From contig OZ240211.1 of NCBI GenBank assembly GCA_965197525.1, forward strand, positions 640,001 to 704,000: 64,000 nucleotides of DNA, written 5' to 3'. The notes beneath the pieces are model-generated. The model searched no databases. It had not been told where the DNA came from and saw only the letters and a program-made list of their open reading frames with translations. The stretch is from Nitrosopumilus sp. (lineage in GTDB: Archaea > Thermoproteota > Nitrososphaeria > Nitrososphaerales > Nitrosopumilaceae). Below are positions 58,504-64,000 of this stretch, in pieces. Each line of letters starts with the position of its first letter. Position 1 is the stretch's first letter. A program made the translations under genes and the position numbers.

Positions 58504-58591
58504 ATTATATAAAGAAGTTGTCAATGGAATTGAAATTATTATATAAAGAAGTTGTCAATGGAATTGAAATTATTATATAAAGAAGTTGTCA
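58504..58591. repeat. 34-bp tandem repeat, 2 units plus 20 bp
   Basis: Unit ATTATATAAAGAAGTTGTCAATGGAATTGAAATT. Confidence 0.9.
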
Positions 58592-59968: not shown

Positions 59969-61120
59969 TTAACTTGACGAGTGGTAATTCTTCCTGTTAA
60001 CTGTCGAGGGGTTGGATTTTGAGGCGTTCTGTATAATGGTTAGCCATTTGTTGTTACCCTTGATCTCAATCCCTGCTCTGTCTGCTGGAGTGTCACCGTC
60101 TAAACTCATGTGAGGTCTGATGTAATTGTGATATAATTTGATACCGTCTATTGCAGGCGAGTCATCTTTTTTGAGTCCTCGAAACACTTTCTCACGGTCT
60201 CGGAACTCACCGTTTAACCTCTCTTGGATATTGTTGTTTGCCACTTGGTTTTTGAAATGTACCTCTTTGATATGTTTGCTTGGTTTATGTAAGAAATTCT
60301 TCTGAGCAAACTCTTTTTTGAAAGCGTCATTATACGCTGGTAATCCATCCGTTACAAATACGCGGGGTGTCTTTTTTGCTACTGTTTTACCCATCTTTAA
60401 CAGACTTTGTGCATCATGCTTGAACTTGCTATCAGCTACTTCTTGAGCAATCCAAAAACGTGTCTCGTTGTCCATCATGGCAAACAAATACTTGCGATCA
60501 CCCTTTACTTTAAGCCATACCTCATCCGCATGCCACTTCTCGCCTACTTGTGGGGTTATTGTACTCAGATAATCATCCATAATCTTGATGTATTTTTTGA
60601 CCCATTTGTAAATAGCAACATGAGACATATTGACACCTTGTAATCTTAGAAATTTTTGTACTCCTCTCAGAGATTCACCTGTAAAGTACAACTGCATAGC
60701 TTGTGTAATCATATCAGGTGTGGCTCTCATTCCCTCAAATCCCAAATTTACTGAGAATTTCTTAGAGCATGATTTGCACTTGAATATCTGCAAGTCATAA
60801 TTCTTGTTGTGTCTAACTCCCCATTTGGACACGTCATTAGAACCGCAGAACTGACAAGATTTGACGTCAACAGTTTCAATAACATGTTTCTTTACTTCCT
60901 TGCGTATCTTCAAAGATATTTCTACGGCATGAATGTGTTTACAGCACACCTTACGGAACTGATGATCAGGACATGAGCAACTCCAGCCAAATTCAGTACC
61001 CACCACATCATATAGGGAATCACTGTTTTGGCTTTTGGCCTCGTAGTGTGTATCATTTACTCTCTTGATCTGATCCTGTTTCTCTACTATGGTTTGACCT
61101 CTGGTCTGTCTTGTGTTCAT
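59969..61120 (-). CDS. IS6-family DDE transposase with N-terminal SWIM finger and Zn ribbon
   Basis: CSCPD...CKH SWIM; CQFC...CKSC; WHADE, VTDGLPAY, NNIQERLN triad intact; stop inside the TIR. Confidence 0.9.
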   Translation of the reverse strand: MNTRQTRGQTIVEKQDQIKRVNDTHYEAKSQNSDSLYDVVGTEFGWSCSCPDHQFRKVCCKHIHAVEISLKIRKEVKKHVIETVDVKSCQFCGSNDVSKWGVRHNKNYDLQIFKCKSCSKKFSVNLGFEGMRATPDMITQAMQLYFTGESLRGVQKFLRLQGVNMSHVAIYKWVKKYIKIMDDYLSTITPQVGEKWHADEVWLKVKGDRKYLFAMMDNETRFWIAQEVADSKFKHDAQSLLKMGKTVAKKTPRVFVTDGLPAYNDAFKKEFAQKNFLHKPSKHIKEVHFKNQVANNNIQERLNGEFRDREKVFRGLKKDDSPAIDGIKLYHNYIRPHMSLDGDTPADRAGIEIKGNNKWLTIIQNASKSNPSTVNRKNYHSSS

Positions 61121-61528: not shown

Positions 61529-63043
61529 ATGATCTCCAGCAGAGGCAAGTCTTCCTCAATCGGGGGGGGCAGCGCCTCAAACCAGCATCAAGCGGAATCA
61601 AAAACCGAACAATCTTCACAGCAGATAATCTGCCTGTTATGAGAGGTATGGAAGATGAAAGTGTAGATTTGATTTATCTTGATCCTCCGTTCAATTCTAA
61701 ACACAACTATGCTGCACCAATAGGGTCAAAGGCGGCAGGTGTCGAATTTAAGGACACATGGACACTTAGCGATGTGGATGTTGCATGGTGGGGTGAGATT
61801 GCAGAGATCAACGAATCCTTGTATTCGATTATAGGAACTGCTGGCAAAGTAGGAGGAAAATCTACAATGTCGTATCTGATATACATGGCAATTAGGATTT
61901 TGGAGATGCGCAGAATTCTAAAATCAACAGGTTCATTGTACCTGCATTGTGATGCCACTATGAATCATTATCTAAAACTAACATTAGATGCAATATTTGG
62001 TAGTTCGTGTTTCAAAAATGACATAACATGGAAACGACATTCATCCCACAATGATGGTAAAAAATACGGTAGGATTTCGGACTCTATCCTGTTTTATACA
62101 AAATCAAACAAGTATCGATGGAATAAAACACATATTCCATACACAGATGAATTTGTTAAAAAAACATTCAAACATAAAGATGAGCGTGGTAGATTTCAAC
62201 ATCAACCGTTAACAGCTGAAACAAAATCGGGCGGAGGATATGAATATACGTATCACGGACACAGTAGAATTTGGACACACCCTCAGGAATCTATGCTGAG
62301 ACTAGAAGAAGAAGGAAGGGTATATCTTCCTAAAAATAACGGCATACCGAGACAGAAATTTTATTTGAACGAATCGGAAGGAATGCCAATTCAGAATATA
62401 TGGATCGATATTCCCAAGATGTCAGGCAAGGAAAGATTAGGATATCCTACACAGAAACCATTGGCGTTGTTGGAGCGAATAATAGAATCAAGCAGTAGCA
62501 TAGGTGATATTGTGTTTGACCCATTCTGTGGTTGCGCTACAGCCTGTCTTGCAGCAGAGAAACAGGGTAGAAAATGGATAGGCTGTGACATATCTGAAAG
62601 AGCGTACTCGCTGATTGAACTTGCATCCACGTTATCATGATGTACGAGCAGGAAGTGACATATCTGAAAGAGCGTACTCGCTGATTGAACAGAGGCTTAG
62701 GGCAGATGCAGGAATTGCCAAATTCATTACAGGAGCTGGCGAAGTCATACATAGGACTGATATCCCACATAGAAAAGGCAGACGATCCAAGAACATCAAG
62801 CATACGTTATACGGAATCCAGCATGGGTACTGCAACGGTTGTAAATACCATTATCTATTCAAGGATTTGGAGGTAGATCACATCATACCAAAAGCAAAAG
62901 GCGGTCAGGATGATGACAAAAATCTTCAACTACTTTGTGGTAACTGCAACAGACGAAAAGGCGGAAAACTTACCATGACTGAACTTAATGCGGTGCTGGT
63001 TGCAGAGGGCATGAAGTTCGGTAAGGGGCGTTCTGGATCCTAG
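61529..63043 (+). pseudogene. Beta-class N6A/N4C DNA methyltransferase-HNH endonuclease fusion, interrupted twice
   Basis: DPPF and DPFCGCAT motifs; HNH DHIIPKAKGG...NLQLLCGNCN. Frame broken at G8 (61562-61569) and by a 70-bp duplication/insertion; repairing both gives one 481-aa ORF. Currently ORFs 61639-62640 and 62615-63043. Confidence 0.8.
62585..62690 (+). repeat. 36-bp direct repeat - 34-bp unique insert - 36-bp direct repeat inside the MTase-HNH gene
   Basis: GTGACATATCTGAAAGAGCGTACTCGCTGATTGAAC at 62585-62620 and 62655-62690; insert TTGCATCCACGTTATCATGATGTACGAGCAGGAA. Confidence 0.9.
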
Positions 63044-63100
63044 CTCCCGACACTTTCCAGCAAGAGTTAGATCCCGTCAAGTTAACAGAACCAAAAATTT

Positions 63101-63151
63101 ACCCCTCGACAGTTAACAGGAAGAATTACCACTCGTCAAGTTAACAGAACC
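63101..63151 (+). mobile_element. 51-bp remnant of the transposase-3' end of a second IS6 copy in opposite orientation
   Basis: Exact reverse complement of 59962-60012; 8 bp from the main element end. Confidence 0.85.
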
Positions 63152-63756: not shown

Positions 63757-63981
63757 ATTATATAAAGAAGTTGTCAATGAAATTGAAAGTATTATATAAA
63801 GAAGTTGTCAATGAAATTGAAAGTATTATATAAAGAAGTTGTCAATGAAATTGAAAGTATTATATAAAGAAGTTGTCAATGAAATTGAAAGTATTATATA
63901 AAGAAGTTGTCAATGAAATTGAAAGTATTATATAAAGAAGTTGTCAATGAAATTGAAAGTATTATATAAAGAAGTTGTCAA
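63757..63981. repeat. 34-bp perfect tandem repeat, 6 units plus 21 bp
   Basis: Unit ATTATATAAAGAAGTTGTCAATGAAATTGAAAGT; paralogous to 58504-58591. Confidence 0.95.
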
Positions 63982-64000
63982 TAGTGTAAAATGGTCAAAG

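Follow-up and report, generated by a model that had tools for sequence, protein, structure and literature searches.

In Escherichia coli, the adaptation proteins Cas1 and Cas2 can integrate spacers off target, with duplication of a repeat-length stretch of the target and formation of neo-CRISPR loci (Nivala, Shipman & Church 2018, Nat Microbiol 3:310, as described in 10.1101/148544 and cited in PMC7054753, PMC6698737 and PMC9456107). That work reportedly involved over-expressed Cas1-Cas2, supplied oligonucleotides, 28-bp repeats and a dependence on IHF. Off-target integration by Cas1-Cas2 has so far mainly been shown in engineered E. coli; natural neo-CRISPR cases reportedly come from two other species and are circumstantial (10.1101/148544). 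Off-target acquisition is also one accepted origin of isolated arrays, at least as a later account portrays it (Shmakov et al. 2020, CRISPR J 3:535, via PMC13142298). The phenomenon is already known experimentally, and the locus described here is not a new kind of system. It appears to offer, however, a clean natural record of such integration in an uncultivated ammonia-oxidising archaeon with a type I-B system, in which several events can be followed, one of them disrupting a gene and matched by a candidate protospacer from the same samples.

Like the type I-E neo-CRISPR loci of E. coli, as these are described, the present locus consists of a spacer-length insert and a target duplication of the host repeat length, lies outside the array at a site that resembles the leader-repeat junction, and occurs in a host whose adaptation module looks active. 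In contrast to the E. coli loci, it is natural, archaeal and associated with a type I-B system with Cas4 and a 36-bp stagger, and five or more events are present in a single genome, one of which breaks a gene and has a candidate protospacer. With the isolated or orphan mini-arrays (Shmakov et al. 2020) it shares two repeats and one spacer, a position far from cas genes and a de novo origin; however, as described, those mini-arrays are repeat-like sequences retrieved by array-finding tools, whereas the present repeats are ordinary coding sequence, similar at the ends only, and paralogues and homologues record the site as it was before the insertion. The type I-B array of the genome itself has the same repeat length of 36 nt and spacers of 33-39 nt, a range that includes the spacer of the new unit, but the latter has no leader, a single spacer, no adjacent cas genes and only 2 of 24 internal matches to the array repeat. 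Cas1 integrases are mechanistically related to casposases, and the target-site duplications of transposons and casposons likewise are direct target repeats around inserted DNA that arise from staggered strand transfer. Known duplications of that kind are far shorter, however (2-15 bp rather than 36 bp), and the 34-nt insert, unlike a mobile element, has no ends, genes or copies and differs from site to site.

The repeat-spacer-repeat unit and the gene it interrupts

The window analysed here is the whole stretch of 64,000 nucleotides at C1:640001-704000 of a single-contig genome (C1; 2.21 Mb, 39.6% G+C); positions without prefix refer to the window. An archaeal AmoA is encoded in the genome, and the organism is therefore an ammonia-oxidising archaeon. 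The unit has the layout 36 + 34 + 36 = 106 bp, 70 bases of which are added, and lies where two open reading frames (ORFs) overlap:

61639-62640, + strand: truncated DNA methyltransferase (MTase) ORF, 333 aa (ORF and PF01555 match)
62585-62620, + strand: copy 1 of the duplicated 36-bp target (neo-repeat), identical to copy 2
62615-63043, + strand: detached HNH-nuclease ORF, 142 aa, with a TTG start within copy 1 (PF01844 match)
62621-62654, + strand: 34-nt insert (spacer), single occurrence in the genome
62655-62690, + strand: copy 2 of the duplicated 36-bp target, identical to copy 1

A preliminary description of this DNA had reported an exact 36-bp duplication around 34 unrelated bp and had read it as a product of off-target spacer acquisition. 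Coordinates and sequence both proved correct: 62585-62620 and 62655-62690 are identical over all 36 nt, and the duplicated 36-mer has the GT start, the small internal AGCG/CGCT hairpin and the ATTGAAC end attributed to it. The 34-mer is single in the window when up to three mismatches are allowed; a search of the 2.21-Mb genome, as proposed at the outset, revealed no second copy, the best other match being 13 nt. The 34-mer thus has no source in the window or the genome, and its derivation from nearby sequence, the outcome named beforehand as speaking against spacer acquisition, is not what is seen. Chance origin of the 36-mer pair is excluded, because an exact isolated pair of this length is unexpected in 2.2 Mb and because isolated unique pairs of such a size cluster at periods 70-73 in a scan of periods 30-600 (see below).

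The 70 added bases shift the reading frame and supply a TGA stop, and therefore give rise to separate MTase and HNH ORFs, the latter open from TTG 62615, just as the preliminary description had it. PF01555 (N6_N4_Mtase) is complete in the 333-aa ORF (E 1e-42, profile positions 1-219 of 221), but the final six codons of this ORF and its TGA stop come from the inserted spacer. Its alignment with homologues ends at ...DISERAYSLIE, the stretch in which the two window ORFs overlap in that alignment, and is followed by a foreign LASTLS. The HNH ORF matches PF01844 (E 2e-14), a domain that all relatives have at the C-terminus of their fusion protein. Indeed, in silico deletion of 62621-62690 yields a single 445-aa ORF, so that the claim that removing 70 bp restores the MTase-HNH fusion stands. 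The stand-alone methyltransferase is probably still complete. The cell probably retains an orphan MTase but not the linked HNH nuclease, and the detached HNH domain is probably unexpressed.

Uninterrupted relatives, which the preliminary description had recommended looking for, are plentiful. In the same genome, one paralogue is an intact fusion (C1:920403-921740) and another is decayed (C1:917469-918634); both contain the homologous 36-mer once, without an insert, and read on ...WIGCDISERAYSLIEQRLK... In addition, about 115 of the best 120 database homologues, the closest of which is 85% identical, are 430-480-aa fusions that have both Pfam domains and the segment once, without the insert, and an uninterrupted diverged homologue is also found on a low-depth contig in two metagenome runs. 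These empty sites in two paralogues and many homologues indicate that the insert is an insertion and not the ancestral state. An empty allele from the same species was not found: the exact 36-mer of the window unit (unit 1) had no match in the metagenome contigs searched for it, and the contigs of the three runs considered below (X1-X3), a form in which rare variants are dropped, contained no joint that skips precisely the 70 bp. Both paralogues lie within 4 kb of sequence (C1:917469-921740), the decayed one interrupted by a stop and shortened at its 5' end, and a long GGTTCTT microsatellite is located beside them at C1:921863.

The unit is also supported by sequencing data from outside the assembly. 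Runs X1-X3 belong to one study, possibly the genome's own source, and contig L045 of an ENA metagenome assembly may belong to it as well, so these data are only partly independent. In X1 (Logan contigs), a 94-nt unitig covers 62591-62684 with zero differences, spanning copy 1, the spacer and copy 2, and a separate unitig consists of the 36-mer, with a depth about double that of its flanks (54 versus 26). A 99-nt contig from X3, a second sample of the same study, runs across the unit with one base absent at 62649. Moreover, L045 (ERZ25067264, 40 kb), from a separate assembly, contains the window unit with the same 1-nt deletion (C at 62649), and it has an extra DDE_Tnp_1 insertion sequence (IS) near window position 61765. 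L045 shares the unit but differs by the deletion and the extra IS; at least two lineages have therefore inherited the unit, and one of them shows the additional decay that is to be expected once a gene is inactive. The extra IS, 1.36 kb in length (L045:1636-2990; window ~61765), lies within the already broken MTase gene of this sister lineage.

The host CRISPR-Cas system and the target site

The genome contains one large CRISPR locus:

C1:1512793-1523988: CRISPR array with 158 repeats and 157 spacers

The array repeat is exactly 36 nt long, the length of the duplication in the window, and the spacers measure 33-39 nt (35 nt in 57 of the 157, 34 nt in 48 and 36 nt in 38), a distribution within which the 34-nt insert lies. 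An intact adaptation module accompanies the array: a cas4-cas2-cas1 block of intact open frames is situated ~80 bp from the leader end, and its cas1 (E 1.6e-64) is the only one in the genome. The preliminary description had proposed checking for cas1 and cas2 genes and for repeat and spacer lengths near 36 and 34 nt; a CRISPR-type Cas1, Cas2 and, in addition, Cas4 are encoded, the lengths agree, and a lineage devoid of Cas1, which it had considered fatal to the idea, is not what we encountered. Genes for cas7/Csh2, cas5b and cas3 are arranged divergently from the cas4-cas2-cas1 block, and the system is therefore type I-B-like.

The array looks active, because all 157 spacers are distinct and degeneracy is limited to the trailer repeat. 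It seems to be read on the minus strand, with the leader on the cas side, as indicated by the degenerate repeat at the far end, the ATTGAAAC repeat end on the minus strand and the match of the real repeats to Rfam family CRISPR-DR7, which is likewise on the minus strand. A genome search gave no informative self-matches of array spacers, hence no protospacer-adjacent motif (PAM) was derived. A solitary CRISPR repeat with one mismatch is present at C1:1362554-1362589, 150 kb from the array, with no adjoining spacer or second repeat.

On the plus strand, the real repeat starts with GTTTCA and ends with TTGAAC, and its leader-proximal copy is followed by AG. The duplicated segment in the window resembles precisely these ends and the leader-repeat junction: it starts with GTGACA, ends with TTGAAC and is followed by AG (62691-62692), reproducing the array junction TTGAAC/AG. 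Agreement thus extends to 10 of 12 terminal positions (GT..CA and TTGAAC) and both of the two leader positions, as against 2 of 24 internal positions (12/36 over the whole repeat). Among 4.42 million strand positions, 27 non-CRISPR sites score at least 12/14 (p ~6e-6); in both paralogues without an insert, the score is 9/14. On either strand, the first base of the duplicated segment is G, which is also true of the real repeat. The leader side of the unit is probably to the right. Certainty on this orientation is precluded by the quasi-palindromic nature of the repeat ends, owing to which the right-hand end of the unit also resembles the ATTGAAAC end. An attempt to orient the unit by the end-base bias of the array spacers (T first on the plus strand in 81 of 157) was rejected, since the spacer of the unit reads T...A on either strand.

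The source of the insert and further units

Although unique in the genome, the insert recurs outside it, with 33 of its 34 nt found in an unrelated coding context in X1-X3. In each of these runs, other contigs match 62622-62655 only, with loose ends at both positions, the match at 62655 being due to chance; those from X1 and X2 run at least 255 nt on both sides in sequence unrelated to the MTase-HNH locus. Three variants of the protospacer-like sequence were recovered. Five of the six differences between them are at third codon positions, and they have a common frame through the spacer and terminate at the same TAA, which marks the sequence as the 3' part of a protein-coding gene. The genome contains neither these flanks nor the peptide that they encode. 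These contigs look like the protospacer or close relatives of it. At 62621, the first position of the spacer, the variants have A or G in place of its T, and the flanks read TTA/TTG (plus sense) and TGC (minus sense). Elsewhere, the exact 34-mer and a wobble-degenerate 33-nt pattern had zero matches in IMG/VR, JGI metagenome contigs and GTDB genome contigs, INPHARED phage records gave chance-level matches alone (E = 4), and at up to three mismatches the insert was absent from 150 genomes of the genus.

We scanned the genome for isolated exact pairs at periods of 30-600 and for pairs with up to five mismatches at periods of 45-160. Isolated pairs cluster at periods 70-74 (9-10 of 18 pairs) and are rare at other periods. 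The host adaptation machinery appears to have left at least four units in the genome besides that in the window (unit 1):

C1:731766-731871: unit 2, 36-bp repeat and 34-nt spacer, copies exact; intergenic; right end and flank ...GAC/AGAG, resembling unit 1; T again as the first spacer base
C1:981256-981364: unit 3, 37/35; in the end of an IS630-like element, ~35 nt inside; empty site shown
C1:1025450-1025560: unit 4, 38/35, copies exact; intergenic, between HNH-domain and radical-SAM genes
C1:2191251-2191359: unit 5, 37/35, one mismatch between the copies; in-frame in a 217-aa gene; empty site shown

If a 36-bp duplication is extended by chance matches, repeat lengths of 37 and 38 are to be expected. 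The five inserts are unrelated in sequence to one another and to everything else in the genome, apart from a copy of the unit-3 spacer: a 220-nt fragment of an IS end (C1:828435-828653) contains it with a few changes (unit at C1:828506-828613), and unit 3 was therefore copied along with the IS. For unit 3 itself, the IS copies at C1:480917 and C1:145757 have the segment once. For this unit only, it is conceivable that the repeats are an IR-DR-type transposase-binding repeat instead of an integration scar. Unit 5, which starts with GTGA and ends with CTGAAC, lies in the gene of a conserved membrane protein, eight homologues of which lack exactly the 24 extra residues. No empty sites of units 2 and 4 were found in relatives from the genus; these relatives are ~80% identical and their intergenic DNA is unalignable, which limits such searches. 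The exact 36-mer of unit 2 had no match in genome contigs, and the spacer cores of units 2-4 had none in IMG/VR. Resemblance to the repeat ends is seen in the window unit and, more weakly, in unit 2 (9/14, p ~0.003); in the other three of the four further units, the ends are not significantly similar to those of the repeat.

Two other candidates were set aside, one at C1:772237 (period 74), which has internal repeats and whose removal restores nothing, and one at C1:360796 (period 72), which lies within a repetitive large protein gene. An isolated exact pair of 34 nt, 28 nt apart, occurs at C1:1318322-1318417; its repeat ends in GTTGAAATG and its geometry is unlike that of the host array.

Competing explanations, consequences and neighbouring sequence

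We consider it very probable that the window unit is the scar of an ectopic spacer integration by the host type I-B Cas1-Cas2, with Cas4. This reading is based on the geometry of the unit, the machinery at hand, the target mimicry, the empty sites, the foreign match, the recurrence of such units and the E. coli precedent, and the case for Cas1-Cas2 is anatomical and statistical. The integrase would have taken a 36-bp stretch of the MTase-HNH gene for the leader-proximal repeat, an error owed to the ends of the stretch, which happen to mimic both those of the CRISPR repeat and its junction with the leader. Two staggered attacks 36 bp apart would then have joined in a 34-nt prespacer from a foreign element, and repair of the gaps would have duplicated the 36-bp target. 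An insertion with exact repeat-length duplication, an intact adaptation module, junction mimicry and a foreign match are directly seen in the data; it is from these that we infer the staggered strand transfers by Cas1-Cas2 and the duplication of the target by repair.

Direct repeats around an insert can also be produced by repair, and a short tandem duplication with filler DNA, arising from slippage, template switching or error-prone break repair without any role of CRISPR, would agree with a period of 70, which is not a multiple of three, as expected for an accident. The filler, however, has no source anywhere in the genome and yet matches a foreign gene in the same samples. Moreover, the duplication equals the CRISPR repeat in length and the insert a common spacer, with ends that match the repeat/leader junction (p ~6e-6), and the same 36-38/34-35 geometry is found again at four or more unrelated sites while being rare at other periods, all of which makes this explanation highly improbable. 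The footprint of a tiny mobile element, or of another integrase with 36-bp target-site duplications such as a casposase-like Cas1 or an IS-related enzyme, is likewise highly improbable. IS and TnpB elements abound in the genome, and many genomes of the genus encode extra Cas1 homologues of casposase size, but the sole Cas1 of this genome is the CRISPR Cas1, and the five inserts are unrelated in sequence and therefore not copies of one element. That the unit is an assembly or sequencing artefact is barely credible: short exact repeats are sometimes wrongly assembled and the runs may be the genome's source data, but a unitig spans the whole unit, the 36-mer is at twice the depth, and the second sample and the separate ENA assembly contain the unit with a lineage-specific 1-nt deletion and an extra IS.

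A different matter is whether the unit now works as a one-spacer CRISPR locus that forms part of the MTase transcript, undergoes processing and serves in interference, as the term neo-array in the preliminary description might imply. The unit sits within a presumably transcribed gene, and the ATTGAAC end of copy 1 closely resembles ATTGAAAC, the end of the real repeat that provides the 5' handle. However, identity to the real repeat amounts to 12/36 and concerns essentially the ends only, which makes recognition by Cas6 unlikely; the neo-repeats match no Rfam CRISPR-DR family, whereas the real repeats match CRISPR-DR7, and a second spacer was never added. We regard this possibility as very unlikely, and the repeats do not qualify as ones that the host would recognise. 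The off-target spacer integration of the earlier description is therefore well supported, but nothing indicates that the window unit functions as an array; most probably it is an inert scar rather than a CRISPR locus in operation.

If the units are integration scars, the five of them let the stagger of the integrase be read directly (36 bp each, chance extension allowed for), make visible the sequence mistaken by the integrase for its target (GT..CA ... TTGAAC/AG), and reveal the cost, a restriction-modification-like gene apparently turned into an orphan methylase and a dead nuclease. CRISPR adaptation would thereby be documented as a cause of damage to the host genome and as a provider of raw material for new arrays, and a genome-wide screen for repeat-length duplications flanking spacer-length inserts suggests itself for other lineages. 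As a more speculative extension, which we consider rather unlikely, ectopic integration may be recurrent and ongoing in the natural population, with some units serving as seeds of CRISPR loci or as reversible gene switches. A reversible switch is conceivable because the MTase-HNH gene would be regained exactly if the two 36-bp copies recombined.

The surroundings of the unit contain several other repeats. Head-to-tail tandem arrays of a 34-bp unit, with a TATA-like TTATATAAA inside and ATTGAAAG at the end, are located at window positions 63757-63982 (6.6 perfect copies) and 58504-58591 (2.6 variant copies), the only two places in the genome where they occur, one on each side of the IS / MTase-HNH region. 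At 59969-61120, the minus strand encodes an IS6/IS240-type transposase that has a SWIM zinc finger at its N-terminus. A 22-nt inverted match (60000-60021 / 63092-63113) links the end of this IS6/IS240 element to a site at a distance of 3 kb, shortly after the end of the HNH ORF, where two GTCAAGTTAACAGAACC-containing repeats (63041-63151) adjoin it; this downstream match may be a remnant IS end.
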